Assembly (NCBI GenBank): GCA_012512325.1
Contig: JAAZEL010000038.1
Span: 10,518 to 74,517 of the forward strand
DNA: 64,000 bases
Origin: Candidatus Fermentithermobacillaceae bacterium
GTDB taxonomy: Bacteria; Bacillota; Sulfobacillia; Fermentithermobacillales; Fermentithermobacillaceae
Direction of reading: 5' to 3'
Both the position numbers and the translations under genes were made by a program. Shown here piece after piece: positions 33,692 to 48,602 of this stretch (position 1 is its first letter; each line of letters starts with the position of its first letter). The notes under the pieces were generated by a model. It made no database searches, had not been told where the DNA came from, and worked only from the letters and a program-made list of their open reading frames with translations.

Positions 33692-34792
33692 GTGCTGTAT
33701 GTGAAGCGTATCCTCCTGTCAGGATACTACGGGTTCGGCAACACGGGAGACGAAGCCATCCTGGCTTCGACGGTGAAAGCCCTTAGACAAGCACGCCCGG
33801 ATCTTGAGATCATGGTGTTGTCGGAACACCCAGATGAAACCGGCAGCACTTACGGGGTGAGAGGGTTCCACAGGATGAGCCCTACCCAGGTCCTAAAGGC
33901 GATTCACCTCGCAGACCTCGTGGTTTTCGGCGGAGGCAGCCTGCTCCAAGACATCACTTCTCTAAGATCCCTGATTTACTACCTTTCCATCATCCGGCTA
34001 TCCCGCCTGTCCGGCAAACCCGTGGTGGTGTACGCAAACGGGATCGGCCCCATAAGATCCAAGTTAGGCAGGTTCCTCACTAAGCATACCCTGTCAAGAG
34101 TGAAAGCGATAACCGTCAGGGATGCCGAATCTGAAACGGAACTCAGAAGGCTCGGGGTGCCCTTGCCGGTACAAGTAACCGCAGATCCCGCGTTCCTGCT
34201 GGACCCATCCCCCGACCACATGGCCGATTCCATCCTCAAGGAGCACGGGATTGGCTCTTCCAAAGGGATCGTATGGATCGCTTTGCGCCGGATGAACACC
34301 CCACCGTGGTTCCTGAACCAGATCCAAGATCTCATTGGCTGGCTGAGGCAGGAACACAGGGAACCGTCTTTTCTGGCAATGCAAGAGCGTGACCTGGCTG
34401 TGGCTCAAGTACTTAACCGGGAGCTGGTTTCAGCCGGGCAAAAACCCATGCCCACGGTGTCCGGCATTTCCCCTGAAGACGCCTTGAGCATCCTGGGGAA
34501 AGGGGACTATTGTCTGGGGATGCGCTTGCACACCCTGATCCTCTCGGCCAGGGTCGGGGTGCCATTCATGGGGGTAGAAATAGACCCGAAAATCGGCGCT
34601 TTCTGCAGGAGCACCGGCTGCCCGGCGATGCCCGGCCCCGATCCTCAAGAACCGAACTTCAGCATCGTGGACGAGTTCAAAGCCTTCATGCAAGACGGGG
34701 ATAAACTAAGGCAGGCACTCCAGGAGCACCTGCCCCGGTTCCGCTCACTGGCAAGGCAAAACATAGATATGGTGCTTAGCTATCTCCGGTGA
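33692..34792 (+). CDS. csaB: polysaccharide pyruvyl transferase CsaB
   Basis: 366 aa. N-terminal ILLSGYYGFGNTGDEAIL and the overall CsaB family layout. Divergent from the tagA-like gene. Confidence 0.8.
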   Translation: MLYVKRILLSGYYGFGNTGDEAILASTVKALRQARPDLEIMVLSEHPDETGSTYGVRGFHRMSPTQVLKAIHLADLVVFGGGSLLQDITSLRSLIYYLSIIRLSRLSGKPVVVYANGIGPIRSKLGRFLTKHTLSRVKAITVRDAESETELRRLGVPLPVQVTADPAFLLDPSPDHMADSILKEHGIGSSKGIVWIALRRMNTPPWFLNQIQDLIGWLRQEHREPSFLAMQERDLAVAQVLNRELVSAGQKPMPTVSGISPEDALSILGKGDYCLGMRLHTLILSARVGVPFMGVEIDPKIGAFCRSTGCPAMPGPDPQEPNFSIVDEFKAFMQDGDKLRQALQEHLPRFRSLARQNIDMVLSYLR

Positions 34793-34966
34793 TCTTCCTG
34801 TTGTCGATGGGTCTGGATACCGCCATGCTTCAGAGCCGTCTCGAATGCCCCTCCGTCCTCTGTGCCGTAATCCCTGGGCCCTATCCGGTCGGGCCGCACT
34901 GCTTCATTGTAGGCTCTCCCTGCGCTTAGAAACGCCGGGCACAAATGTCAGACAGCCTAGGTCGTA

Positions 34967-35398
34967 CTACTTTATCGTGAACTCTCCCCGCACCATGACG
35001 ATGGCATCTGACGTAGCCTTGATTCCCCTTCCGTCATCCCTGGGAACCAGCAACAGGTGGTTGGCAGGGACTGCCGAGCCACCGCCGAGATCAACGCCCT
35101 GGGTAACATCGCACAGGCCCCCGAGCTCCGAATCTATTACCGTAGCTTGTCCGCCCCTGAGGATGATCTCAGTCCCGGAGTAGCCTATCAGGGTTTGCCC
35201 AGAGGCAAGCTCAACCACACTCATCTTGAGCCTTGAGTTAACATATGAGTCAACATATGCCTTGGTAACCAAGGGATCGCCCTCGCTACCCGGTAAAGGC
35301 ATGTTGGATGCGGCAAACCCCTTGCCAAACCACCTAAGGGCCGCGCCTACGGCCACCAACAACACTGCGTAGATCAACCCTTTCTTCCTGCCTGCCAT
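34967..35398 (-). CDS. hypothetical secreted/membrane-anchored protein
   Basis: Start at the ATG at 35398 (MAGRKKGLIYAVLLVAVGAAL...) with a strong RBS GGAGAGGTGGAG. The track ORF from 35575 overlaps prfB and is rejected. No family assignment. Confidence 0.5.
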   Translation of the reverse strand: MAGRKKGLIYAVLLVAVGAALRWFGKGFAASNMPLPGSEGDPLVTKAYVDSYVNSRLKMSVVELASGQTLIGYSGTEIILRGGQATVIDSELGGLCDVTQGVDLGGGSAVPANHLLLVPRDDGRGIKATSDAIVMVRGEFTIK

Positions 35399-35421
35399 CT
35401 CCACCTCTCCTTTCCCTTTCC

Positions 35422-36523
35422 CTATCCTGAAGCGTCCTGCCTTAGCTTGGCGTATATGAAGTCGTCGATGTCGCCGTCCATGACCCTTTCCACACTGCCT
35501 GCTTCTACTCCGGTGCGGTGGTCTTTGACCAAGGTGTACGGTTGGAAAACGTAAGACCTTATCTGACTGCCCCATGCAATTTCCTTTTGAGGCCCTCTCA
35601 ACGCCTCAATCTGCTTCATCCGCTCTTCTTCTTTGAGCGCCAGAAGCTTCGCCTTGAGCATCCTCATGGCCAGGGCCTTGTTGGAATGTTGGGAGCGCTC
35701 GTTCTGACAAGTGACCACTATACCGGTGGGGATGTGGGTAATCCTCACCGCCGAATCGGTCTTGTTTACATGCTGCCCTCCTGCACCCGAAGATCTAAAG
35801 GTGTCGATCTTGAGATCTTCGGGGTTGATGTCTATCTCTGCCTCTTCCTCTATTTCAGGCAGCACATCCACAGACGCGAAGGAAGTGTGACGGCGCTGGT
35901 TGGCGTCAAACGGGGATATCCTTACAAGCCTGTGGACCCCTTTCTCAGTGCGCAGAAAACCGTAGGCATAGTCTCCCCGAACGGAAAAGCTCACGCTCTT
36001 CAGCCCGGCCTCTTCCCCCGGGAGTATGTCCAGGGTTTCCAGCTGAAAGCCCTTGCGTTCCGCCCAACGGGAATACATCCGGTAAAGCATGCTCACCCAA
36101 TCCATGGCTTCGGTACCGCCTGCGCCTGCATGGAGGGTTACAATCGCATCCCTGGAATCGTACTCCCCTGAAAGAAGTGTCTCAAGTTCAAAATCACGGA
36201 CCTTGAGGGCAGCTTGTTTCGCAGATTCGGTGAGATCGGGCAAGAGCTCCAGATCCCCCTCTTCTTCCGCCATCCGGGCGATATCGATGCTGTCCCTGAT
36301 CAAGACCTCAAGTTCCCTGTACCGCTTGATTTTGTCCTCAATCCGGCTGATTTCAGTGCCCACTCTCTTGGCTCTCCGCCGGTCTTGCCAGATTGACGGA
36401 TCTTCCATCTGCTTCTTCAGGGAAGCAAGTTGCTGCTCAAGCCCTGGGAAGTCAAAGAGACCTCCCGATATTGCTTAGTCTTGCCTGCAATGTCTCAAAC
36501 TCGCTTATGACCTGTTCGTACAT
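35422..36523 (-). CDS. prfB: peptide chain release factor 2, expressed via programmed +1 ribosomal frameshift
   Basis: Frame-0 ORF from ATG at 36523..36521 reads MYEQVISEFETLQARLSNIGRSL-stop, with CTT TGA C at 36457..36451. The +1 frame continues DFPGLEQQ..., joining the 328-aa ORF 35422..36408, which carries the GGQ motif SGAGGQHVNKTDSAVR. Confidence 0.9.
36451..36466 (-). other. RF2 autoregulatory +1 frameshift site (SD-like GGGAGG, then CUU UGA C)
   Basis: Minus-strand read is atc GGG AGG tct CTT TGA C. This is the canonical prfB recoding signal. Confidence 0.85.
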
Positions 36524-36567
36524 GCCTGTTCCCCCTAAACCTAATTTGGCTATGGTATTCGCCACCG

Positions 36568-39327
36568 CTACGCAAGTTTACCGCAGCAGTGCTTGTACTT
36601 CTTGCCGCTACCGCAAGGGCACGGAGCATTGCGTCCGACTTTCCTTACAGCTTGCCCTGCAGGTGCCCTACCGGCTGCAGCTGCCTGATGGGACCTTGGA
36701 GTTGGCCTCCTGGAACCGGGAACTCCCGCCCCTCCGGCGGCCACCTGTGTCCGGCGCCGCCTGGCGGCTTCACCGGTGCCCGCTAAGGTTACCCTGAAAA
36801 TATAAGACACTGTGTCTTTTTCGATGCTTTGAACCATGCCTTGGAAAATCTCGTAACCTTCTTTTTGATACTCAAGGAGAGGATCCCTTTGCCCGTACGC
36901 CCGGAGGCCGATACCTTGCCTAAGGCTTTCCATGGCCTGAAGGTGGCCTATCCACTTCTGATCCACCACCCTTAGGAGTATCAGCCTCTGTATGTCCTGG
37001 AAGTGCTCACCCAAGATCTCTCCTTTTTGTCTGTATGCGGCATGGAAAACCTGGGTGACTGCCTCAAGTGCTTCCTCCCTGGAAGGGGACTGCTGGAATA
37101 CGGACGCAAAATCCGCGTCAGGCAAGATTTCCTTAAGATATGATTCCAGCCCGGCGAGGTCAGCTTCAGCCTGGGACACACCGGGAGCCCAGAACAGGTC
37201 AAAACCCAAGGCAATCGACCTTTCCATCATCCCCAGGACTATCTCTGACAGATCGTCCCTTTCCAGCACTTCACGCCTCTGGGCATAGATCACTTCCCGC
37301 TGCTTGTTCAGGACGTTGTCGTATTCAAGCACGTTCTTTCTGATTGAGAAATTATGAGCTTCTATCCTTTTCTGGGCGGTCTCCACCGATTTGGTGATCA
37401 GGGGATGCTCTATGGGTTCGTCTTCGGCAAATCCCATCTTCTCCATCACGCTGCCAATCAGGTCGCCGCCGAACAGCCTCATAAGTTCGTCCTCTATGGA
37501 CAAGTAAAACCTCGATGAACCGGGATCTCCCTGCCTGCCGGCCCGCCCCCTCAGCTGGTTGTCTATCCGCCTCGCTTCATGCCTTTCAGTCCCGATAACG
37601 TGGAGGCCGCCTAAAGCCACAACCTCCTCGTGCTCCCTGTCTGTGAGCTTCTTGGCTCTTTCATAGAGTTCCCGGTACCGCTTGCGTGCCTCCATTACCG
37701 TGTCCAGGTACTCGTCTGTTTCACCCGAGCTTATCTTCGCCATCATCGCCTGTGGAAGCACTTTTTCAGTGGCCACGGCAATCACATCGGGCTCGAAACC
37801 TTCCTTCCTGAGGGCGGAACGCGCCATGAACTCAGGGTTCCCGCCCAGGAGTATGTCCGTGCCCCTTCCGGCCATATTGGTGGCTATGGTCACGGCCCCT
37901 TTCCTCCCGGCCTGGGCCACTATCTCAGCTTCCCTTTGGTGATGCTTGGCGTTGAGCACTTCGTGGGGGATCCTTCTTTTCTTAAGCATCCCGGACAAGA
38001 CTTCGGATTTTTCAACTGACCTGGTACCCACAAGCACAGGCCGCCCGGTCTTGTGAAGTTCTACTATCTCTTCCGCCACCGCGTTGAACTTAGCTTTTTC
38101 CGTAGCCCAGATGGAATCGGGCATGGCGGTTCTTATGAGAGGCTTGTTGGGAGGTATCTGCACCACGTCCATGCCGTATATCTGGATGAACTCAGCCTCC
38201 TCAGTGGCAGCCGTCCCCGTCATCCCCGCCAGCTTCTTGTACATCCTGAAGAAGTTCTGCACCGTTATGGTGGCAAGCACGTCCGACTCCTCCCGCACAG
38301 TAACCCCTTCTTTGGCCTCTATGGCTTGGTGGAGCCCGTCGGAAAACCGCCTGCCAGGCAGGAGACGGCCTGTGAACTCGTCGACTATGAGCACTTCGCC
38401 GTCTTTGACCACGTAGTCCACGTCCCGGTGCATGAGTTCCTTTGCTTTTACCGCCTGCTTGACGTAATGTTCGATACCTATGTTTTCTTCTGAGGAGATG
38501 TCGTCAATCCCCAGGTAATCCTCGATGAGGCCAATCCCTTCTTCGGTGAAAGCCACTGTCTTGGCCTTTTCTTCCACTGTGTAATGTTTATCCCTGACCA
38601 TCCGGTCCGCCAGGAGCTTGAACTTGCGGTACTTATCCGTGGAACCCTGGACCTGGCCGGAGATGATCAAGGGGGTCCTTGCCTCGTCTATGAGGATGGA
38701 GTCCACTTCGTCGATTATGGCGTAATCCAGGACGCCCTGGACCAGGTCCTGCTTACGCAAGGCCATGTTGTCCCTCAAGTAGTCAAACCCGAATTCGGCG
38801 TTGGTCCCGTATACTATCGGGCACGAATACGACCGCCGTTTGGCGACAGGATCCATGCCCGGCACCACCAATCCCACTTCCAGCCCCAGGAACCGGTAAA
38901 TCTGGCCCATCCATTCTTTGTCCCGGGATGCCAGGTAGTCATTGACGGTCACCACATGGACGGTATGCCCGCCTATGGCGTTGAGGTATGCAGGCAAAGT
39001 GGCCACCAGGGTCTTGCCCTCGCCTGTCTGCATCTCCGCAATCCGTCCCTGGTGAAGCACGATGCCGCCCATTACCTGCACACCAAAATGCCTCATATCA
39101 AGCACACGCCTGGCGGTTTCCCGCACCACCGCAAAAGCTTCAGGCAGGAAGCTGTCAAGGGATTCCCCCCTTGAGCTGCGTTCCCGGAACTCTCCGGTCT
39201 TGGCCTGAAGCTCCTGATCTGAAAGTCGTCTCATATCAGGCTCAAGCTTGGATACGGCCTGGACAATGCGGGACAGCTTGCGCAATTCCCGTTCGTTTGA
39301 GTTAAGCAGATTTCTGAATATAGACAC
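36568..39327 (-). CDS. secA: preprotein translocase ATPase SecA
   Basis: 919 aa. DEAD-like motor motifs, a long low-complexity linker, and a C-terminal zinc finger [14 protein letters not shown]. Confidence 0.95.
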
Positions 39328-39387
39328 GGTTATCCCCTTTTCACCTTACACTGTAAGACAGTTTTGGCCTTCCATATTCATGTCAGC

Positions 39388-39477
39388 GTGCTCATCCTGG
39401 CCATGCTAATGCTGGCAGTGTTCATCCCAGCCCTGTTCACATTAGCCGCGGTCATCTTGGCCGGGCTCAGCTAATTC
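39388..39477. repeat. three imperfect 30-nt direct repeats in the secA 5' region, overlapping the DUF5317 gene stop
   Basis: Units are gtgctcatcctggccatgctaatgctggca, gtgttcatcccagccctgttcacattagcc and gcggtcatcttggccgggctcagctaattc, about 60% pairwise identity. Both strands carry short repeat-encoded ORFs. Confidence 0.6.
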
Positions 39478-40039
39478 TAGCATCCTTTTGGGTGTCAGGG
39501 AAACCGCGGTGCAGGGTGTGAAGGACAAACCACAACACGCCGCCGGCCATGAGGATATCGCCGACGCTGAAGGTAGTGGGAACCTTGGAAAGGAATCTCC
39601 ATCCGAAGATGTCTGCCAGGAACCTCAGCCTCACGCCGTCTGGGATCACCTGATGGGTAAGGCTTGAACCCAGATCTCTCACCTGGCTCTCGAGCAAGCT
39701 CATGCCGATGCCATGAGGGTCAACAGGCATCCGACCCCCGTTTGCCATTATGGCCATGAAGTTAAGGAACATGCCCAAAGCCATGGGCACAAAGCCGGGC
39801 AGCCTGAGATTGGGGTATAGACCGTAAAACAGCACCAGGTAGGTAACCAGAGATATCCCCATGCACAAACCAGGGGATGGCTCAGCTTTTCCTTGGAGCA
39901 ACAGCACGGAACCGAACTTAACCACGAAAGCACCTGCGATCCAAGGGAAGCGCTCAAGTTTTATGTCGCCAAGCCTTGACAACTTACCTCCTGTCAACAC
40001 GCCGAGGACAAGGGAGAGCAGCACCGCAAACCTGAACAA
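39467..40039 (-). CDS. DUF5317-like polytopic membrane protein
   Basis: 190 aa, multi-TM. Its stop is 5 nt upstream of the HD-GYP gene... correction: it lies immediately downstream of the HD-GYP gene with a 4-nt gap, which suggests co-transcription. Confidence 0.55.
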   Translation of the reverse strand: MFRFAVLLSLVLGVLTGGKLSRLGDIKLERFPWIAGAFVVKFGSVLLLQGKAEPSPGLCMGISLVTYLVLFYGLYPNLRLPGFVPMALGMFLNFMAIMANGGRMPVDPHGIGMSLLESQVRDLGSSLTHQVIPDGVRLRFLADIFGWRFLSKVPTTFSVGDILMAGGVLWFVLHTLHRGFPDTQKDARIS

Positions 40040-40043
40040 GGCG

Positions 40044-41309
40044 TCACTTCCTCAACAGCTCATGGTCGATGATCTTGACCATGGCTTCCACCACTTTGGG
40101 ATCGAACTGGGTCTCTGAGCATATCAGGAGTTCTTGTCTTGCTTCTTCATATGACATTTTATCTTTGTACGGCCTGTCGGTAGTCATGGCGTCAAACGCG
40201 TCGGCACACGCAATAATCCGGGCGCCCAAGGGAAACTCATCGCCCGCCAGCCCGTCAGGAAAGCCTGTCCCATCCCATCTCTCGTGATGGTGCCTTACCC
40301 ATTGCTCCCTTTTGCCGAGGAACTTCATGACCTTGATTATGTCGGCCCCAACCTCGCTGTGCTTCTTCATCGCCTCATACTCGTGGTAGGTATAAGGGCC
40401 TTCTTTTTTCAGCAGGCTGTCAGGCATACCCACCTTGCCCACATCGTGGAGCAGGCCCACGTATCTTATTAGTTCAACTTCTTCATCGCTGAGTCCCAGG
40501 TACTTGGCGAGCTTGGCGGAATACTCAGAAACCCTGACTGAGTGGCCGTGGGTGTAGGAATCCCGGGCATCCAGGGCGATACTCAAGGCAGCTGCCATTT
40601 CGTTGTAGGTTTCCCAAAGGTCAATGTATTTTTGGAGGGAAACCTTGGTAACTATGAGGGGCAGGTAAAAAAACACGAGCACCGGAGGGCTTGTCTGCTG
40701 GACTACCAGCACCATGAGCGCACCCACAGGGAACAAAGCAAACATGTTTGGAAGCATCCACACGATGTTACGGCGCCATATTGATGAAAACGACACTCTC
40801 ATGTCGAGGGCAATTCCTCCACCGATCAAGCAGGCATTAAGGAGGGTAAAAGCTGAAGCGGCCAGTATGAAAGCAACTAAACCTTTCGGGAATTCAATGT
40901 TTCCAAATCCGCCATAAACCATGAAGTATATTTGGGAGAATACATAAGCGCATATGGTTAAGACGCCCCTGTTAAACATTACCACGGTTGTCGGCACTTC
41001 AAGGGACAAATCTCTCTTACGCAAAGTAGCCACGGCAGCCACCCACATCCCCACTGCCGGCCCATATAGCACAATCACTGTGAGTATCAAGGGGGTAGCC
41101 ATAGAGGCAGTGCCTTTTCCTCTGGGGAACGGTACTGCTGCGGCTTCGCCGCACGCAACCAAAACGGCGAGGAAAAGCACTTCAGCTAAGTGACCGCCAT
41201 CCTCAAATCTGGGGATATTGGTTGCGAGAAGGAAAATGCCCAGGCCTGCAATGCCCCAAGCGTATGCGTTAAAGAGTCTGAATCCTTTTTTCAATCCCGG
41301 ACACCTCAT
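40044..41309 (-). CDS. 7TM-receptor-linked HD-GYP domain phosphodiesterase (putative c-di-GMP phosphodiesterase)
   Basis: 421 aa. N-terminal multi-TM region, then an HD domain (LLHDVGKVGMPD, HHERWDGTGFPDGL; GFP in place of GYP). Confidence 0.8.
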   Translation of the reverse strand: MRCPGLKKGFRLFNAYAWGIAGLGIFLLATNIPRFEDGGHLAEVLFLAVLVACGEAAAVPFPRGKGTASMATPLILTVIVLYGPAVGMWVAAVATLRKRDLSLEVPTTVVMFNRGVLTICAYVFSQIYFMVYGGFGNIEFPKGLVAFILAASAFTLLNACLIGGGIALDMRVSFSSIWRRNIVWMLPNMFALFPVGALMVLVVQQTSPPVLVFFYLPLIVTKVSLQKYIDLWETYNEMAAALSIALDARDSYTHGHSVRVSEYSAKLAKYLGLSDEEVELIRYVGLLHDVGKVGMPDSLLKKEGPYTYHEYEAMKKHSEVGADIIKVMKFLGKREQWVRHHHERWDGTGFPDGLAGDEFPLGARIIACADAFDAMTTDRPYKDKMSYEEARQELLICSETQFDPKVVEAMVKIIDHELLRK

Positions 41310-41566
41310 AGAAGGGCCGACAGCCCCCAGTCATTATCCCATCTGGAAACAAGCAGCTCCAGCCAAAAGAAGCGTAAGAATGGCAAGAATCGCCTTAAGA
41401 ACCTTGTTCACCAGAAACCCCCCGTTACCTGCTTGTATCCGAACCGCTAATTCAGATCCACCTTGGCTCCGCTGGAAAACATTCCGGGCTGTCGGCACTA
41501 TGTATCTGTTCTACATGATAGTCCAGTTTCCTCTTGATAACCAGCCAAAATTGTGACTAAGACAGT

Positions 41567-42217
41567 CTAATTGTCTAACAACATAGGAAACTTGCGGTTA
41601 ATAGCATCTAAGGTAGCTCTCACCACAGCCTCCCTCTCATCGCAATCGATAGGACAGGAACCGCTGAGCATAGCCTCTTTCCCGCCCCCCACAAGGGTTA
41701 CAGTAACCAGTGCTATCTTCGCCGACTTGGATTGAGCTATGGTGGCATCATTGAGCACAAGCTTCACCTTGGGGGACACCAGCTTGGCCAAGGCATCCAG
41801 AGTTGCCTCTGCAGCAAGCCGGAGCCACCGTGTAGGTGTAGGAATCCCTGTTGCATTCCCCGACACCAAGGCATTCCCCAAGCCCAGCTCGACTGTCACT
41901 TCGGCCTCGTCCTTGCCCGATGTGAGGGAGACTCTCGTTAGCACCAGCCTGTCCTTGTCCCTGATATCCCCTTCCTGGCCCAACTGGGCTATTGAAATCT
42001 TCCGCCTGTCTAATGTCTCGCCACAAGCTGCCAGGATCGCCGATTCGATATCCCTTGCTATGTACCTGGGAGAACGCCCTGGACGTGCCAGTACATGGAC
42101 TTCGTCGACTTCGCCATCCTTGCCAAACACTGCCCTGCAAGCTATGACGTCTTTGATCTTCTCAACAGTGCTCTCAATCTTCCTCGCTCTAGCTAACTCA
42201 TCAGGCATTACTGACAC
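41567..42217 (-). CDS. hypothetical protein (216 aa)
   Basis: ORF only. No recognisable family. Lies between the HD-GYP gene and hpf. Confidence 0.45.
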   Translation of the reverse strand: MSVMPDELARARKIESTVEKIKDVIACRAVFGKDGEVDEVHVLARPGRSPRYIARDIESAILAACGETLDRRKISIAQLGQEGDIRDKDRLVLTRVSLTSGKDEAEVTVELGLGNALVSGNATGIPTPTRWLRLAAEATLDALAKLVSPKVKLVLNDATIAQSKSAKIALVTVTLVGGGKEAMLSGSCPIDCDEREAVVRATLDAINRKFPMLLDN

Positions 42218-42276
42218 CCCGTATCCTTAATGGCATGGCCGGACTACCATCCCGGGACAGGGGAGTTACAGCGGCG

Positions 42277-43392
42277 CTACCTATAACCTTCGCTTTCGCT
42301 TACCACCATCTCAGCCAAAATCCACAGCCCTGCGGCAACAAGGCTGTGCCCTCCGAGAATAACCGGTATAGGTGATTCCAAGGCACACCGTGTGAACTCC
42401 CTTACCCACTCGTCGCCAATCAGTTCATATCTGCCCAGATCAGACTGGAACCTATCCCAGTCTGAGACCTGTTTGTTCAGGTGGGCAAAGACTACCCGGC
42501 TGTCAATGAAAGCCAGGTCACATACTCTTGAGACGTATTCGAAAAACTTGCAGGGACCAAGCTCTTCGATCATGTACCCGATAAGGGAAACCACTTCGCC
42601 CCGTTCATCACGGCCAAGGGCCTTCATACCTCTTTCTTCGGAATATACCCGCATTCTGTGAACCATATTTGTGTTGATGTACTGGATCACAGACGGGCCC
42701 ACCCTTCCGAAAACTGCGATTTCGCGGGAATCTTGCCGCAGGATATTCAGGGCTTGCTTTAACTTCTCCGTGGGCCAGTCCAAGGCTTGGATGGCCTTAA
42801 GTGCCCTTGGGCCACATTGAGGGTGCATTCCCAGGATTTGAATGTCCACAGGTGTGTCAAGGTCGAAGTTTATCCGGCCTGAATTGGGAATCAACAGCCG
42901 GCGCATGCCGATGCCACGCAACAGGTTGCCTAGAGCGTTGTCAGACTCGGGAAGGTCAACTTCATCGATGGCCCGGGCGGGCGTAAAGCCAACCAGATCT
43001 GCAGATTGGACATTGTTTACGATCACAACGTTCTTGTTGGTCTTGAGTGAAAGAGCAATTTCGTTGAACTCCGCTGAAGTAATGAGAGGAGCGGCCGCTC
43101 CCCCCATGTAAATCACGTTGTTCAGCTTGTACTTGACGATGAGTTCTCTCAAGCGCATGCCAAAATGAAACTGCCGCTTGTCTGAGTCAAAGTCCACTTC
43201 TGCGAGTTCAGATGCTTCGTCCGCCAGCTCTCGATTATTGGTTACCAAGAACACCCGGTCGATTTCAGGTGCCTGGGCCAACTTGGCCAGGGTGTCCAGC
43301 ACCACTTGAGTACGGACGTGCATTATTATCTTGTCCAGGGATGTCCGAGCTTGTCCTCCTTCGAAAATGACTGCGGTTACCGAACGGTCCAT
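42277..43392 (-). CDS. hypothetical protein; the N-terminus weakly resembles a MobA/CofC-like nucleotidyltransferase (AVIFEGGQARTSL)
   Basis: 371-aa ORF. Weak motif resemblance only. Confidence 0.45.
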   Translation of the reverse strand: MDRSVTAVIFEGGQARTSLDKIIMHVRTQVVLDTLAKLAQAPEIDRVFLVTNNRELADEASELAEVDFDSDKRQFHFGMRLRELIVKYKLNNVIYMGGAAAPLITSAEFNEIALSLKTNKNVVIVNNVQSADLVGFTPARAIDEVDLPESDNALGNLLRGIGMRRLLIPNSGRINFDLDTPVDIQILGMHPQCGPRALKAIQALDWPTEKLKQALNILRQDSREIAVFGRVGPSVIQYINTNMVHRMRVYSEERGMKALGRDERGEVVSLIGYMIEELGPCKFFEYVSRVCDLAFIDSRVVFAHLNKQVSDWDRFQSDLGRYELIGDEWVREFTRCALESPIPVILGGHSLVAAGLWILAEMVVSESEGYR

Positions 43393-43413
43393 TTAGTGCC
43401 TCCGCTCCCGGAG

Positions 43414-43932
43414 CTACATATTCTCAGGCTCAATGAGCCCGAAATTACCGTCTTTGCGCTTGTATATTACATTCACCAGTCCCGTTTCACAGTTAGAAAA
43501 TACGAAGAAGTCGTGACCCAGAAGTTCCATCTGAAGGGCGGCTTCTTCCGGGGTCATAGGTTTCATGGCAAACCGCTTAACCTTCACGATTCTCCCTGTT
43601 TCAGGCGCTTGCTTACCCTGTTCCTGCTTTATCTCAGGCTTGTCGCGCCTGAGCAGCCTGGTCTTGTACTTTTCAAGCTGACGCTCGAGTTTCTCCACTA
43701 CGAGGTCAACTGATGAAAACGCATCCTGAGCCGATTCCTCAGCTCTCATGAGCATGTTGTTGAGAGGAATGGTGACTTCTACTACCCATCTGCCCCGTAC
43801 AGTTGAAAAGGTAACCTGACACACAACAGGATCGTGCCTGATGTATTTTTCCAACTTGCTGAGCCTTTTTTCTGCATACTGCCGGAGTGCAGGCGCTACA
43901 TCCACGTTTTTCCCTCGGATACTGAACTCCAT
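43414..43932 (-). CDS. hpf: ribosome hibernation-promoting factor (long HPF/YvyD)
   Basis: Start at the ATG at 43932 (MEFSIRGKNVDV...) with RBS GGAGGT. N-terminal RaiA-like domain plus a C-terminal dimerisation domain. Confidence 0.85.
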   Translation of the reverse strand: MEFSIRGKNVDVAPALRQYAEKRLSKLEKYIRHDPVVCQVTFSTVRGRWVVEVTIPLNNMLMRAEESAQDAFSSVDLVVEKLERQLEKYKTRLLRRDKPEIKQEQGKQAPETGRIVKVKRFAMKPMTPEEAALQMELLGHDFFVFSNCETGLVNVIYKRKDGNFGLIEPENM

Positions 43933-44267
43933 CCCGCATACCTCCAACAAGAGTATTTGCCTAATAGTTATTCCCTATGAAGGCAACGGACACCTCCAAG
44001 AGCGTTCCACTGGAAATACACCTTACATACTAGTTTTCGACATAATAAAACCCAAGTCAATACGGATAATCGACACATATTGACAATCCACAGGAATATC
44101 CCCAACCGGAAACCCAGATTTAACTGGTTATCAACACAATTGTCCACATTATCCACAGGAAGCAACTCACACTATCCACAGGAGGCAACTCGCTCCGGTG
44201 TGCTGACTCTTAGCCGGTAATCTCCGAAATCTCGACCGATACTGTGTTGGCAACTCTCCCCGGTGTG

Positions 44268-44296
44268 TTGACTCTTAGTCCCGGGAATGCTATAGT
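44268..44296 (+). promoter_or_regulatory. sigma-A-type promoter for the cold-shock gene (TTGACT-17-TATAGT)
   Basis: Near-consensus -35 and -10 boxes with 17-nt spacing, about 75 nt upstream of the csp ATG. The 5' UTR contains the hairpin gacgacgcggcggggacccgtcgtc. A degenerate duplicate of the -35 module lies about 68 nt upstream. Confidence 0.6.
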
Positions 44297-44371
44297 CCGA
44301 ACACGAGCTAAAAGCTCCAAAAGACGACGCGGCGGGGACCCGTCGTCAGGAATTAGGAGGAATGTCCCTAA

Positions 44372-44575
44372 ATGCAAGGCAGAGTAAAATGGTTCAACGC
44401 GCAAAAAGGCTATGGTTTCATTCAACGGGATGGCGGACCGGACGTATTCGTCCACTACTCGGCAATCCTGGAAGAAGGGTTCCGCACCCTTAACGAAGGT
44501 GATCTTGTAGAATTTGACATTATCGAAGGGCCCAAGGGCCTTCAGGCTGCCAATGTAAGCAAGATTCTTGCGTAA
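44372..44575 (+). CDS. csp: cold-shock protein (CspA family, S1-like OB fold)
   Basis: 67 aa [32 protein letters not shown]..., with RNP1 and RNP2 motifs. RBS AGGAGGA. Confidence 0.9.
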
Positions 44576-44590
44576 GCATGGCCAACGTTT

Positions 44591-44628
44591 GCCCCGGCCT
44601 TAGATGCGCCGGGGCTTTCATATTTTGT
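44591..44628 (+). terminator. rho-independent terminator of csp
   Basis: gccccggc / gccggggc stem followed by tttcatatttt. Confidence 0.7.
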
Positions 44629-44650
44629 CGCACTTGCTCATGACTCTGGT

Positions 44651-44735
44651 TTGTTTCGCTCTTGTTTTTTGCTCTTGTCTATAGCTCTTGTCTTTTGCTC
44701 TCTTGCTTATGGCTCTTGCTTATTGTTCTTGTTTG
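44651..44735. repeat. about 13-nt tandem repeat (GCTCTTGTYTWTN), about 6-7 copies, in the convergent csp/fliT intergenic region
   Basis: tcgctcttgtttttt gctcttgtctata gctcttgtctttt gctctcttgcttatg gctcttgcttatt gttcttgtttgg. Confidence 0.6.
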
Positions 44736-44828
44736 GTCCGCCCTTGCCCGGTCACTGCTTTCAACCACATTGTTTCAGTCCCATTGGTTAGGTGGTTCGT
44801 TTACCTTCATTCACATTGCAGCAGGCTC

Positions 44829-45170
44829 CTACAAGGTGTTGTCAAACCGCCTGTTGCCCCGCAAACCCCTGGAATAAGCCATGAGCACCCTGAGTTTGTT
44901 TGCGATTTCAAGCATTTCCCGGTTGCCCCGGTCCATTTCTTCCCTTACGAGTTCAGCTATCTCGGCATCCAGCTCATTGATGCAGAGGGCAACTTCCTTG
45001 GCAAGCACCTTCTGGGTATCGGTAAGTGCAGGCTTGGCCCTGGAGCTGAGCTGCTCAAGCACCGACCCACGTTTTTCTATAAGAACGCTCACGTCCTGGA
45101 AATTGCCTGCCCGGGCCGAGTCTCTGGCCTGGGCGGTAAGTGCCAGAAGATCTTTGAACGCCTCAACCAT
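44829..45170 (-). CDS. fliT: putative flagellar export chaperone FliT-like protein
   Basis: 113 aa from the ATG at 45170, which overlaps the fliS stop (tATGgtTGA). Helical, about FliT size, and directly downstream of fliS as in B. subtilis. Sequence similarity was not verified. Confidence 0.45.
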   Translation of the reverse strand: MVEAFKDLLALTAQARDSARAGNFQDVSVLIEKRGSVLEQLSSRAKPALTDTQKVLAKEVALCINELDAEIAELVREEMDRGNREMLEIANKLRVLMAYSRGLRGNRRFDNTL

Positions 45171-45564
45171 AGTTACGCACCGCTTCCTCCCAAGCATCCC
45201 TGATCTGGGTCATCACATTCACGGCATCATGTACCAAGCCGGCTTCCTTGTGCACATTGGCTTTGAGGAGGCACAGATACACGAAACTGTAAAGGGAGTT
45301 GAGCCTTGCGGCCAGGTCGCCCACGCTTAAGTCGAGAGCAGCCCTTAGCTCGTCGGTGATGTCCTGGGCATGAACCAGCTTTTCGTTGGCCCCTGAGTAG
45401 TCCTTTGCCTCAATGCAATTGATGGCTTCCTTCATGCTTCTGAGGCACACGTTGAACAGCATCAACACAAGTTCTGCAGGGGAGGCGGTCTCCACACTTG
45501 ACTGCTTGTAAGCGTTTACCACCTTCTGCCTGTCGGTAGCTTTAGCAACGTAGAACAAATCCAA
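45163..45564 (-). CDS. fliS: flagellar export chaperone FliS
   Basis: 133 aa. ...ASPAELVLMLFNVCLRSM...LNSLYSFVYLCLLKAN...IRDAWEE matches the FliS family pattern. Confidence 0.85.
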   Translation of the reverse strand: MDLFYVAKATDRQKVVNAYKQSSVETASPAELVLMLFNVCLRSMKEAINCIEAKDYSGANEKLVHAQDITDELRAALDLSVGDLAARLNSLYSFVYLCLLKANVHKEAGLVHDAVNVMTQIRDAWEEAVRNYG

Positions 45565-45650
45565 TCACCCGATCTTTCAACATCTGTCTACAGGGCATTT
45601 GCTAAACCGCGCATCCGTCAAAAGCGACATCCGCTACACAGTGGCTACAC

Positions 45651-47009
45651 CTAGGACATGAACAAGCTCTGTATCTGCTGGGTGATAAACAAGCCCTGGG
45701 TGTTCATCTGGAGCAACAGGGATTCCAAGGCGGTGAACTGCTTCCTCAGGTTCACAAGCCGGATTTGCAGCCGCCTCTCAAGGTTTTCGATCTGACGGGA
45801 TATATCCTTATCCTGGGCTTCCAGCCTGTTCTGTCTCAGAGGCAGCAAGCCGTCATGGCCTATGTACATCTCCAGCGCCTGCTTGAGCTTGGTCAACACC
45901 CCTTGTGAGCCTGCTTCATCCTTCCCGAGAAGGGAGGCAACTCCGTCCCTGTCTGCGGCAAGGGCTTCCCTGAGCTTCGACTCGTCAAGGCTGAGTTTGC
46001 CGTCCCTCGAATACGCACCGATGGCGCCTGTGCTTATCCCTATCTGACCGACAAACCTGAACCCGGGAAGGTTGTCTTCCACTTCCCTGAAGGTGATGTC
46101 CCTGACTTGGCTAAGCAGCCTTTGAAGCAGAGGGTCGCCGAACAGCAAGCCTGCCGTCCTTGTTTCGCTGTCGTACGAGTTGTACTTGGCCGCCAAATCC
46201 AAGAGGCTGTTGTACTCGTTTATCAAGTCGCGCAAGGCTTTTACCAAGGCATCATCGTCGTAGTCTACCGTAACCGAAGTAACCCCGGTCTTGAGCAGGT
46301 TGAGGGTCACTCCGGGGATCGCGTCTGTCACCTCATTAGCATCCCTCTGGAACATGATGCCGTTTATCTTGAACACAGCTTTGGATGGCTCCTGGCCTTC
46401 CACGGTAGCCAATCCCAAGTTCAAGTCTTGCTCCTCAAAGGTGATGGTTTGTCCCGTGTCAGTTCCGGTCAATACAAGGGTGTACTCTGAAGGCACCGTT
46501 TCCAACACTGAAGCCTTGATCCCGAGGCCTTCCGTCCCGTTGATCCGGGCGGCAATAGAATGGAGGCTGTCATTCTCAGCGACCACTATCTCCTCGGTCA
46601 CCCCGCCTATGCTCAACACCAAGGTACCCGTAAAGCCCAGCGCCTCGTCAGGGGATTGGGCGAAACTGCGGGATTGGACGGTGTGAGCCCTCGCCAGGCT
46701 TACTATTTCAACCTCATAGGTCTCCGGCACGGCAGTCCGGGTAGCGGTAGCCGCGACCACAGCCGCATCCCCTGTCTTGGTCGCCTTTGCGGTGTAGACC
46801 TCCTGTTCCAGAAGTGGCCTCATTTTCGCCATGAGCGACTCTATCTTGGACTTGAGTGCATTCCAGGCTGTCTTTTTCTCCGAGATCGCCTTCTGCTTGG
46901 CCTCCAAGGCAACCACCGGCTGCCGCTCAAGTCTCATAAGTTCCTGAATCAGGGTTTCGGTATCAAGTCCCGTTACGTTAAAACTGATTGGGGAACTCAA
47001 ACAGACCAC
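45651..47009 (-). CDS. fliD: flagellar filament capping protein FliD (hook-associated protein 2)
   Basis: 452 aa. N-terminal ISFNVTGLDTETLIQELMRLERQP and the C-terminal FliD helical domain. Confidence 0.85.
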   Translation of the reverse strand: MVCLSSPISFNVTGLDTETLIQELMRLERQPVVALEAKQKAISEKKTAWNALKSKIESLMAKMRPLLEQEVYTAKATKTGDAAVVAATATRTAVPETYEVEIVSLARAHTVQSRSFAQSPDEALGFTGTLVLSIGGVTEEIVVAENDSLHSIAARINGTEGLGIKASVLETVPSEYTLVLTGTDTGQTITFEEQDLNLGLATVEGQEPSKAVFKINGIMFQRDANEVTDAIPGVTLNLLKTGVTSVTVDYDDDALVKALRDLINEYNSLLDLAAKYNSYDSETRTAGLLFGDPLLQRLLSQVRDITFREVEDNLPGFRFVGQIGISTGAIGAYSRDGKLSLDESKLREALAADRDGVASLLGKDEAGSQGVLTKLKQALEMYIGHDGLLPLRQNRLEAQDKDISRQIENLERRLQIRLVNLRKQFTALESLLLQMNTQGLFITQQIQSLFMS

Positions 47010-47024
47010 CTCGCCAAACAGTGT

Positions 47025-47267
47025 TCAGTCTCCGCTGGGCTTACCAACCAAGTCGTCCAGAACATCCAACACAGGGTCCTTGGCCTCCATCATTTCCCTG
47101 GTCACTTCAACCTCAACTTCTTCCCGCAAAACCTTGGTGCCCAGGGGTGCCTCTATGCCCAACCGGACCGAAGCCCGTGTCCCCCGGCCCCTTACCTCGA
47201 TTACACGGACAACAACGTCATCGCCGATTAATATGGCCTCACCTACGCGCCTGGACAAAACAAGCAT
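47025..47267 (-). CDS. csrA: carbon storage regulator CsrA
   Basis: 80 aa MLVLSRRVGEAILIGDDVVVRVIEV... Confidence 0.9.
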   Translation of the reverse strand: MLVLSRRVGEAILIGDDVVVRVIEVRGRGTRASVRLGIEAPLGTKVLREEVEVEVTREMMEAKDPVLDVLDDLVGKPSGD

Positions 47268-47268
47268 G

Positions 47269-47721
47269 TCAGCCCGTCCTTTTCATCAGGTCCTGAAGCG
47301 CCGCAAAAACCTGATGTTTAGTGGTGTATTTGGGATCGCTTACGATCACCTGTCTGCCAAGGCGTTTCTCAGGGTTGATCAGGAGCGGCGCCAACAGGTT
47401 TGCCGTCATCTCCTTTGCATCTCCGGGCACCGTAACCACGGACATCAGCACCAGTTCATCCGGACGGCACGCTCCCAGGCCCTGGAGGTCTCCGGGAGCA
47501 AAAACGGGATCGTAGTCAACGAACGGCACCCGGGGATCTATAATCACAAACCCCAAAGATTCTTCGTCTACGGATTGGAGCCACTTGAGAAACCCGCCCT
47601 TATCCAAGTCCAGCACGATGAATCTCCGGTAATCGGGAAAACCGATGAGCCCTTCGGGGAAATGCAGGATGCGGCTTTCGTCCACTTCCACTATCCCAAA
47701 CCGTTTGGTCGGAACTTCCAC
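47269..47721 (-). CDS. fliW: flagellar assembly factor FliW
   Basis: 150 aa. ...ILHFPEGLIGFPDYRRFIVLD... Confidence 0.9.
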   Translation of the reverse strand: MEVPTKRFGIVEVDESRILHFPEGLIGFPDYRRFIVLDLDKGGFLKWLQSVDEESLGFVIIDPRVPFVDYDPVFAPGDLQGLGACRPDELVLMSVVTVPGDAKEMTANLLAPLLINPEKRLGRQVIVSDPKYTTKHQVFAALQDLMKRTG

Positions 47722-47760
47722 TCATATCCCTCCTGTGCGGCGCTATGCAGGACTCACCCC

Positions 47761-48576
47761 TTACCTGAGATGATCAAGCAGGCTGGGTTGGATAAGCCGA
47801 GCACCTGCCGCCAAGGCAGCCTGGTAAGCTGCTTCCTGAGACTTGAGCTTTACTATGACCTCGACCAGGTCTGCTTCCTCAACGTTTGAAAGCAACCTCT
47901 GGTATTCAATGTCCATGCTGACTGCCTTTTCGCTCAGGATATCAAGCCTCCTGAGCCTTGCCCCGTTCTCCGCCCGCTCAGCTAAGACCCTGTCCAAGCC
48001 GTCATCCAAACGGCCCAAGGCATCCTGTATGACACCTTCATCAGCGGACTCAAGCCCACCTATGAGTTGGTCGAAGACATCCACGACTTCCTGGCGAAAG
48101 TCGGTCAAGTCCTTGACCGTAACGATAACGTCACGGGCCAGCCTCCACTCGGGCATGGTGCCGGTGAGCAGGTTCCTGTCCTCAACCGTGGTGTCCATGA
48201 TGCTCAATGCTTCGTCCTTGAGCTGCCTGACCTCAGCGGCAATAGCGGCTTTGGCATCGGGAGGGGTGGTCCCCGTAGCCCCGTACAGAGCAAGTTCCCT
48301 GGCCCTCTCAAACACCGCGGTCAAGTGGGCAAGGGCCGACTCCGTCTGCTCCATCCAGTTCCTGGCTTTGTCCATATTCCGCCGGTACTGGTTGATCACA
48401 GACCTATCGTGGCGCAAGTATATGGCCCTTCCCGCCCCTATGGGGTTATCCTGGGGCCTGGTAATCGCCTTGCCTGAAGACGCTTGGTCTTGCAGCTTGG
48501 CAAGCCTCTTCTCCAGCTTGAAAATGTTGTATAGGAAGTTCCTCTCGATGGACAGATCCGTAACGCGCACAAGCAT
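47761..48576 (-). CDS. flgL: flagellar hook-associated protein 3 FlgL
   Basis: 271 aa. Flagellin-like N-terminus (RLAKLQDQASSGKAITRPQDNPIGA) and C-terminus. Confidence 0.85.
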   Translation of the reverse strand: MLVRVTDLSIERNFLYNIFKLEKRLAKLQDQASSGKAITRPQDNPIGAGRAIYLRHDRSVINQYRRNMDKARNWMEQTESALAHLTAVFERARELALYGATGTTPPDAKAAIAAEVRQLKDEALSIMDTTVEDRNLLTGTMPEWRLARDVIVTVKDLTDFRQEVVDVFDQLIGGLESADEGVIQDALGRLDDGLDRVLAERAENGARLRRLDILSEKAVSMDIEYQRLLSNVEEADLVEVIVKLKSQEAAYQAALAAGARLIQPSLLDHLR

Positions 48577-48602
48577 CTACCTCCAGTCACCCTGCGCCTT
48601 CA

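Follow-up and report, generated by a model that had tools for sequence, protein, structure and literature searches.

What occupies the interval between hpf and secA in the genome of a Candidatus Fermentithermobacillaceae bacterium, and do the genes found there act as one system? We addressed this question in a 64-kb stretch of contig JAAZEL010000038.1 (assembly GCA_012512325.1), referred to here as the window, with the help of Pfam, NCBIfam, Protein Data Bank (PDB) sequences, and Rfam 15; coordinates are positions in the window, and all genes of the block lie on its minus strand. The original prediction, made from the letters of the window, was that four genes had been inserted between hpf and secA, encoding a 371-amino-acid (371-aa) protein with a MobA/CofC-like N-terminus, a 216-aa protein of no recognisable family, a polytopic membrane HD-GYP phosphodiesterase, and a DUF5317 membrane protein, and that these genes make up an uncharacterised signalling module, probably linked to cyclic di-GMP (c-di-GMP). 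The list of open reading frames (ORFs) bears out the position and strand of all four genes as well as a DUF5317 start 4 nucleotides (nt) past the HD-GYP stop, and Pfam and NCBIfam place hpf on one side, secA and then prfB on the other, and flagellar late genes nearby.

Our data indicate that the idea of an uncharacterised cyclic-dinucleotide signalling module is reasonable, since the middle of the block is occupied by an HD-GYP enzyme whose catalytic motif set is intact. Three corrections apply: the block is not an insertion, it is not a single four-gene unit, and the seemingly empty gap between the 216-aa and HD-GYP genes is the most distinctive part of the locus. Within that gap (41310-41566, 257 bp), which the original prediction had missed, we found a 25-codon ORF (the mini-ORF) and a structured RNA. 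We give about even weight to a reading in which the locus encodes a membrane cyclic-dinucleotide phosphodiesterase unit whose expression would be controlled through this leader RNA, with the 371-aa gene independent of it.

Conservation and separability of the hpf-secA interval

A scan of one genome per species detected relatives of the 371-aa protein in at least 562 species; we fetched 80 loci. We mapped the proteins of the window onto the 58 species-level loci with at least 4.5 kb of downstream sequence. The complete order hpf-371-216-HD-GYP-DUF5317-secA is present in 40 of these loci, and a further eight fall short only of secA or DUF5317 within reach. Seven loci, from Symbiobacteriaceae and a few other metagenome-assembled genomes, contain hpf-371-secA only, and in one (L042; L numbers denote fetched loci) the 371-aa gene stands alone beside ftsH, tilS, and spoIIE. 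Identity of the 371-aa protein to that of the window ranges from 43 to 91% across these loci, with the closest locus at 91%, and assembly LSQX01 encodes an identical 216-aa protein. Since the gene order is kept over this range of identity and G+C content changes smoothly, the arrangement is old and has been inherited within deep-branching Bacillota. Bacillus subtilis, in which hpf adjoins secA, simply shows a different state.

An origin of the block as an island gained by horizontal transfer and placed between hpf and secA, in line with the first wording, is thus very improbable. The adjacency of the two genes in B. subtilis would fit such an origin, as would the slightly lower G+C content of the block (0.49-0.55 versus 0.53-0.58 in the flanks), but there is no sharp break in composition at its edges and its presence is not patchy. 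Moreover, block-gene identity drops broadly in step with that of the flanking hpf, secA, and prfB, and no direct repeats, transfer RNA, or integrase were seen in the ORF list, although no search was aimed at them. The neighbourhood comparison therefore shows an old and widely kept block rather than a local insertion. As to the grounds on which the original prediction was to be abandoned, the arrangement does prove ubiquitous in relatives, but it is not annotated, and neither unknown protein belongs to a well-characterised family. Both are named "hypothetical protein" or carry an automatic MocA/CofC label in every database record that we saw, and neither has a significant counterpart in Pfam, in NCBIfam, or among PDB sequences.

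We found that the interval is composed of two separable units, an hpf-linked 371-aa gene (unit A) and a portable module of the 216-aa gene, leader, HD-GYP gene, and DUF5317 gene (unit B). The actinobacterial homologues retrieved come from Coriobacteriia and other metagenome-assembled genomes. A Coriobacteriia-type actinobacterium (L081, on a 2-Mb contig) has the order hpf, 216-aa, HD_5, degenerate HD, DUF5317, BTAD/TPR regulator, and secA. In Armatimonadota, the order is infC-rpmI-rplT-pheS-pheT, 216-aa, HD_5, HD_5, DUF5317, and a PMT_2 glycosyltransferase, with neither hpf nor secA nearby. The mini-ORF and the closing helix P1 of the leader are present in both. Because unit B recurs in these two groups without the 371-aa gene, and because that gene stands alone with hpf and secA in Symbiobacteriaceae, the four genes do not form one module. 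The proximity to flagellar genes holds in the window and is not kept outside Bacillota.

Unit B itself is kept together with few departures. The hidden Markov model of the 216-aa family matches every fetched locus that has an HD-GYP gene, and 46 of 49 complete loci have the DUF5317 gene together with the HD-GYP gene, as do Coriobacteriia and Armatimonadota. No DUF5317 gene was detected in three loci (L039, L054, and L077), where the HD-GYP gene is followed directly by secA, so DUF5317 is not strictly obligatory for the module. The lineage of the window has a single HD-GYP copy, and elsewhere a second membrane paralogue with an HD domain can stand between the HD-GYP and DUF5317 genes (L029, L032, L034, L037, L043, L053, L074, L081, and L082). 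The genes might still be functionally unrelated neighbours that were held together by a slowly rearranging, old hpf-secA-prfB housekeeping region, without any joint module. The separability of the 371-aa gene is in keeping with this, as is the collinearity of the whole region from the flagellar genes to prfB across the fetched Bacillota loci. We nevertheless consider it quite unlikely, given that unit B stands in the same order behind pheST in Armatimonadota, far from hpf and secA, and recurs in Coriobacteriia, that the 216-aa and HD-GYP genes strictly co-occur in the fetched loci, and that merely 4 nt separate the HD-GYP and DUF5317 genes.

A structured leader RNA and the mini-ORF within it

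The 216-aa and HD-GYP genes are separated by a gap whose length is similar in all relatives and which contains a previously undescribed structured RNA with covarying helices P1 and P2. This leader spans 181 nt, encloses the mini-ORF, and ends 7-10 nt before the ribosome-binding region of the HD-GYP gene. In the window, the closing helix P1 pairs 41496-41486 (GCCGACAGCCC) with 41326-41316 (GGGCUGUCGGC), and the hairpin P2 pairs 41457-41451 with 41443-41437, presenting UUAGCGG in its loop (41450-41444); another AGCGG is single-stranded at 41473-41469. Across relatives, the 5' arm of P1 lies about 160-205 nt upstream of the mini-ORF stop and the 3' arm from a few to about 50 nt after it. The arms vary by lineage yet stay complementary (UGGACCGGCGAUG/CAUCGCCGGUCCA, GGGACACCAGCACC/GGUGCUGGUGUCCC, and UGGGCCAACGCCGUG/CACGGCGUUGGCCCA). 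The P2 stem is AUCUGAA/UUCGGAU in the window and CCACCA/UGGUGG, CUGUCCC/GGGACAG, or UUCUUCCAUC/GAUGGGAGGA elsewhere, and most of 46 lineages carry AGCGG in the P2 loop on differing stems.

The structure was derived from alignments A5 and A6 with RNAalifold, and pairs were counted on a MAFFT alignment of 26 leaders. In P1 and P2 together, 92.6% of alignment cells are paired and 12 of 16 pairs show changes on both sides; none of 500 shuffled controls reached the observed pairing score, and slid controls reached at most 47%. A covariance model built from the same alignment (R1) has exactly one match in the window and one in each locus that bears the module, about 30 loci outside the model set included; every match falls between the 216-aa and HD-GYP genes. 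Scores include 97 bits for L044 and 53 bits for Symbiobacterium thermophilum (L050), and the 11 loci lacking the module gave no match with E < 0.1. In the alignment made with the model (A7), all 16 pairs have changed on both sides and 90.6% of cells are paired versus 63% in shuffles, these values coming from an alignment that is fitted to R1 and leans towards structure. Apart from a sub-threshold match at the cold-shock gene (see below), Rfam 15 returned no match in 34000-50000 at E ≤ 1 and only noise on 41250-41620 at E ≤ 10, and we therefore rejected a c-di-GMP riboswitch or another known RNA in the gap.

The motif AGCGG occurs in two to six copies between the 5' arm of P1 and the mini-ORF. 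Over 27 leaders, it was observed 66 times against 9.5 expected, a sevenfold enrichment, and its reverse complement was seen once; elsewhere in the window, AGCGG clusters amount to chance pairs within coding regions. With csrA 5 kb away, we considered whether the repeats are CsrA sites, which is unlikely: the loop copy is often AGCGGU or AGCGGC, and the GGA core is not kept. Promoter and terminator scans gave counts at the level of shuffled sequence and are uninformative; no terminator was identified. Upstream of the 5' arm of P1 (A5 columns 55-90; approximately 41500-41540, minus strand) is a conserved AAAAGGAAA followed by CGUAGAA(Y), a stretch that might represent the -10 region of a promoter or a further RNA element.

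The mini-ORF runs from a GTG at 41411 to a TAA at 41336-41334, behind a GGGGGG ribosome-binding site at 41423-41418, and its 25-aa product is (M)NKVLKAILAILTLLLAGAACFQMG. We found it at the same place in 56 of the 64 loci that have the 216-aa gene; the other eight gave no match, some of them ending at a contig edge. Mean column entropy is 0.95, 0.47, and 1.61 bits at the three codon positions, and the synonymous share of codon differences is 41% in the frame of the mini-ORF versus 7-9% in the other two. Nearly all of the 35 inspected loci have a GGAGG- or GGGGG-type site 6-10 nt before a GTG, ATG, or TTG. Given this period-3 conservation, the synonymous excess, and the presence of a Shine-Dalgarno sequence with a start codon, the mini-ORF carries a clear coding signature. 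The predicted mini-protein is a single hydrophobic transmembrane helix with a basic N-terminus and a conserved C-terminus, A-G-(G/A)-A-x-(F/W)-Q-x-G, in which the penultimate Q-x-G is kept in 34 of 35 loci. The Coriobacteriia-type version is MKRIAVLLASLAALVMGGGAHFRL, and the Armatimonadota loci also encode one. It matched no family in Pfam or NCBIfam.

Several known kinds of short hydrophobic ORF were considered for comparison. A lipoprotein signal peptide was suggested by the lipobox-like LAGAAC and was rejected, as the Cys is replaced by Asn, Ser, or Thr in most lineages. A secretion monitor of the SecM/MifM type near secA is unlikely, because 25 residues stay in the ribosome tunnel until termination and because the module occurs far from secA in Armatimonadota. 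Type I toxin mRNAs such as those of the hok, tisB, and aapA types likewise place a gene for a very short hydrophobic single-helix peptide inside a long-range 5'-3' helix. Unlike such toxins, which are not so syntenic, the mini-ORF keeps a fixed operon position across at least three phyla and a conserved C-terminal motif, and the fixed position argues against a type I toxin-antitoxin system; no antisense RNA was seen at the mini-ORF, and none was searched for.

The arrangement of the mini-ORF within P1 raises a serious rival to control by a dedicated RNA-binding protein, although we judge it unlikely. Translation of the mini-ORF, or membrane insertion of its product, might open P1 beside the ribosome-binding site of the HD-GYP gene and so determine how well the HD-GYP-DUF5317 message is translated or how stable it is. 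In that case, the peptide would matter mainly as a translated sequence, with the 216-aa protein active at the level of proteins, perhaps as an allosteric partner of the enzyme. Leader ORFs often control downstream genes, and in many lineages the 3' arm of P1 lies 3-20 nt past the stop, close enough for a terminating ribosome to reach it and immediately ahead of the HD-GYP ribosome-binding site. In the family of the window, the start and stop regions of the mini-ORF can furthermore pair with a UAGCGGUUCG segment. In other lineages, however, the 3' arm lies 30-50 nt beyond the stop, and the conservation of the peptide sequence across phyla, above all of the terminal (F/W)-Q-x-G, argues for a functional product. 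A chain of 25 residues, still in the tunnel at termination, cannot report membrane insertion in the manner of SecM or MifM, and the enrichment of AGCGG is left unexplained. Our literature search found no link between HD-GYP proteins and a leader peptide.

Proteins of the two units and a proposed mechanism

The 421-aa HD-GYP protein has approximately six to seven transmembrane segments (residues ~13-222, by hydropathy) followed by an HD-GYP domain (residues 226-416). It matches Pfam HD_5 (PF13487) at 119.7 bits against a cut-off of 27.2 (E = 1.4e-34) and HD at 83.8 bits (E = 1.4e-23). None of the catalytic and metal-binding motifs (H, HD, H, HH, and D) is missing, and they align with those of V-cGAP3 and PmGH, which are also the best matches among PDB sequences (5z7c, E = 5e-42, and 4mcw, E = 6e-34; about 185 residues aligned). 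Both of these are soluble proteins with other N-terminal domains, and the 421-aa protein differs from them further in having Phe in place of the GYP tyrosine. At a position that appears to be PmGH Glu185, which we take to be the ligand of the third metal, it shares a Tyr with V-cGAP3. The original prediction had singled out a GFP variant; the motif HHERWDGTGFP is indeed present, and it proves to be a lineage-specific Tyr-to-Phe change that is confined to Fermentithermobacillaceae and near relatives (34 orthologues with GFP), with GYP in 25 more distant orthologues that include S. thermophilum and the Coriobacteriia-type locus. The annotated ATG (41309) sits within a conserved GAGGTG resembling a ribosome-binding site, and the true start may be the in-frame TTG at 41294-41292, 6 nt after GAGGTG, which would give 416 aa, the length of several orthologues.

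The substitution bears on whether this protein degrades c-di-GMP at all. In the lineage of the window, it might act on another nucleotide, such as 3'3'-cyclic GMP-AMP (cGAMP), or serve as a non-catalytic signalling scaffold, which we consider somewhat unlikely. The closest solved relative, V-cGAP3, is cGAMP-specific, and the tyrosine that contacts c-di-GMP (bioRxiv 10.1101/2021.11.05.467447) is Phe in 34 orthologues. The same report documents HD-GYP proteins that are catalytically inactive and work by contacting other proteins, and the module of other lineages has a second HD-domain paralogue that is degenerate in the Coriobacteriia-type locus. On the other hand, the H, HD, H, HH, and D motifs are complete and aligned, and the replacement of Tyr by Phe is both conservative and recent, with GYP retained in distant orthologues.

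Among studied architectures, the nearest is found in hdgA-hdgB of Streptomyces venezuelae, in which a gene for a six-transmembrane HD-GYP protein is followed by one for a six-transmembrane degenerate HD-GYP protein, both membrane-bound and poorly expressed (PMC6205966; PMC13232838). The two systems share a polytopic N-terminal membrane domain fused to HD-GYP, and the likeness extends to the second HD paralogue after the HD-GYP gene in L081 (where it is degenerate and hdgB-like), in Armatimonadota (L082), and in several Bacillota. Compared by description, the window differs in having one HD-GYP gene, with GFP rather than GYP, and the 216-aa gene, leader RNA, mini-ORF, and DUF5317 partner are not described for hdgAB. 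A membrane domain of six to seven helices fused directly to HD-GYP is also found in MASE9-HD-GYP proteins of the Thermotoga maritima TM1467 type, integral-membrane sensors for which sensing within the membrane has been proposed (Galperin and Chou, bioRxiv 10.1101/2021.11.05.467447).

The 190-aa membrane protein belongs to DUF5317: PF17248 matches above its gathering score at 97.5 bits (E = 9.5e-28), over model positions 2-151 of 151. The protein is basic, with an isoelectric point (pI) of 9.9. Ten residues are invariant in alignment A4 (G89, N93, N100, M104, P105, D143, S158, G160, D161, and G167), the motifs being NGGRMPV, LADI, and SxGD, and the polar ones among them (N93, N100, D143, S158, and D161) lie in or near membrane segments. 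By eye, LADI...FSVGD resembled signal peptidase II (LspA), a relationship that we rejected at an hhalign probability of 3% against a manually entered Escherichia coli LspA sequence. Our literature search found no mention of DUF5317.

The 216-aa protein is soluble, with an N-terminal alpha-beta-beta-alpha-beta domain and a C-terminal half with a double beta-beta-beta-alpha fold, like that of the allosteric domain of LeuA and citramalate synthase. In sequence, the likeness falls below threshold: PF08502, the LeuA allosteric domain, scores 15.2 bits against a cut-off of 24.9, identity to these domains is 14-16%, and one homologue (P0167) has a precomputed PF08502 match. Unlike LeuA and citramalate synthase, the 216-aa protein stands alone without the catalytic triose-phosphate isomerase barrel and has the extra N-terminal alpha/beta domain. 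Its family comprises approximately 4000 clusters at 50% identity, extends beyond Bacillota, and has its gene always immediately upstream of the leader RNA.

We hypothesize that the HD-GYP protein, DUF5317, and the mini-protein work jointly in the membrane, where they would hydrolyse c-di-GMP or a related cyclic dinucleotide (e.g., 3'3'-cGAMP) in answer to a signal sensed within or at the membrane. The leader RNA would set the output of these three proteins post-transcriptionally, and the AGCGG repeats, of which one sits in a hairpin loop and some are single-stranded, are candidate sites for a trans-acting factor. Because its position just upstream is invariable, the 216-aa protein is the best candidate for such a reader, and its LeuA-type domain would then sense a small metabolite. 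This assignment, which is drawn from adjacency alone, we regard as doubtful. A gene for a regulator followed by the RNA target of that regulator is known from B. subtilis, where hutP precedes the hut leader and pyrR the pyr leaders, and these leaders control the genes downstream of them. As in those systems, the gene for a small soluble protein, here with a predicted ligand-sensing domain, directly precedes a structured leader with a short repeated motif. HutP, at UAG repeats, and PyrR, at its binding loop, act by antitermination. The 216-aa fold and the AGCGG motif are unrelated to theirs, no terminator was identified at the leader (in a scan that is uninformative), and RNA binding by the 216-aa protein is putative.

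A number of observations weigh against the phosphodiesterase unit with leader control that we favour. With respect to the enzyme, the nearest PDB match is to a cGAMP-specific protein, the tyrosine that contacts c-di-GMP is replaced by Phe in the lineage of the window, and no GGDEF gene was seen in the 64 kb, which is uninformative for the whole genome. MASE9 (PF20972) reaches 18.7 bits against a cut-off of 24.3 and covers residues 108-221 only, so that membership of this sensor family is not established, and deletion of hdgA/hdgB had no detectable growth or developmental phenotype (PMC6205966, PMC13232838). With respect to control, the 216-aa fold shows no recognised RNA-binding domain, the protein has a pI of 6.6, and adjacency to the RNA is the sole argument for its binding there. 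The AGCGG repeats could bind another factor or join alternative RNA pairings, and the pair counts in A7 come from an alignment fitted to R1. Depending on the lineage, between 3 and about 50 nt separate the mini-ORF stop from the 3' arm of P1, so no single simple translational coupling fits all lineages.

While the enzyme class is known, its context is new and consists of three unannotated protein families and an RNA motif absent from Rfam. Gene callers overlook one of these families, another is very large, and the families and the RNA alike are kept in at least three phyla. Membrane-fused HD-GYP enzymes are the least understood branch of c-di-GMP signalling, in which the studied relative HdgA/HdgB is without a known role, and the locus places this branch in a genetic context that is defined and widely conserved. 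The annotation of hundreds of genomes, from which the mini-ORF and the RNA feature are missing, is corrected as well. We put forward, as a tentative and rather unlikely proposal, that the leader is a new class of cis-regulatory RNA and that its readers, the 216-aa proteins, are a new and very large family that senses metabolites and binds RNA; the two together would gate production of a membrane complex of HD-GYP, DUF5317, and the mini-protein in Bacillota, Actinomycetota, and Armatimonadota. If true, a metabolic signal would be tied to cyclic-dinucleotide turnover. Testable questions that follow concern how these enzymes are controlled, whether the membrane complex forms, and whether the 216-aa family is a new kind of RNA-binding regulator.

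The product of unit A is a soluble protein of two domains. Residues 1-190 have the CofC/FbiD/MobA-type nucleotidyltransferase fold (GT-A-like), in agreement with the predicted MobA/CofC-like N-terminus, although no curated sequence model matches. Residues ~195-368 form a four-stranded Rossmann-like domain with the invariant motifs GRVG, SEERGMKALGR, DxR, DRFxSDLG, and LGGHSL. For the whole protein, we found no Pfam or NCBIfam match beyond noise at E ≤ 1 and no significant match in PDB sequences; a profile of the C-terminal domain matched nothing in PDB sequences or Pfam, and fold searches gave N-domain matches only. Nucleotidyltransferase names of its relatives are automatic Joint Genome Institute (JGI) labels only. 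CofC and FbiD are guanylyltransferases of F420 biosynthesis that act on 2-phospho-L-lactate, phosphoenolpyruvate, or 3-phosphoglycerate. In contrast to these, the 371-aa protein has no sequence-model match to any nucleotidyltransferase family and carries an extra conserved C-terminal domain of 175 residues for which no relative was found; no F420 genes lie near its gene, whose genomic partner is hpf. The fold predicts a cytoplasmic enzyme that joins a nucleoside monophosphate, from guanosine or cytidine triphosphate, to a phosphorylated acceptor. As its gene starts 21 nt past the hpf stop, the two are probably co-transcribed, and it seems best to regard the gene of the 371-aa enzyme as linked to hpf and separate from the rest.

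Feature positions and neighbouring genes

Table 1. Features of the hpf-secA interval in the window, with their anchors and the basis of each assignment.
Feature	Position	Strand	Basis
hpf, long-form ribosome hibernation factor, upstream anchor	43414..43950	-	Pfam Ribosomal_S30AE and C-terminal domain; TIGR00741
unk371, 371 aa	42277..43392	-	ORF list
unk216, 216 aa	41567..42217	-	ORF list
Structured leader RNA, 181 nt	41316..41496	-	Alignments A5/A6, RNAalifold, covariance model R1
Mini-ORF, 25 aa, unannotated	41334..41411	-	Conservation, coding signature
Polytopic membrane HD-GYP protein, 421 aa	40044..41309	-	Pfam HD_5, HD
DUF5317 polytopic membrane protein, 190 aa	39467..40039	-	Pfam PF17248
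secA, downstream anchor	36568..39327	-	Pfam SecA domains

Upstream of hpf, Pfam and NCBIfam identify cspA on the opposite strand and then fliT/fliS/fliD/csrA/fliW/flgL. The cold-shock gene is opposite hpf in Fermentithermobacillaceae and on the same strand as hpf in most other Bacillota loci. The cspA thermoregulator RF01766 has a sub-threshold match at 44281-44619 (plus strand; 36.3 bits versus a gathering score of 78, E = 2.4e-6), which spans the 5' untranslated region and coding region of the cold-shock gene (44372-44575). No raiA motif was found near hpf with Rfam 15 (34000-50000, E ≤ 1).

On the other side of the block, the 139 nt between DUF5317 and secA (39328-39466, minus strand) contain three similar repeats, GGCCAAGAUGA, GGCUGGGAUGA, and GGCCAGGAUGA, with AUGGAAGG farther downstream. 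These repeats could be GGA-type (CsrA-like) or other regulatory sites. Beyond secA, a classical programmed +1 frameshift site of release factor 2 lies at 36451-36466 (minus strand), upstream of the prfB ORF, with a Shine-Dalgarno-like GGGAGG followed by UCU CUU UGA C and a short first frame that begins at the ATG at 36523.

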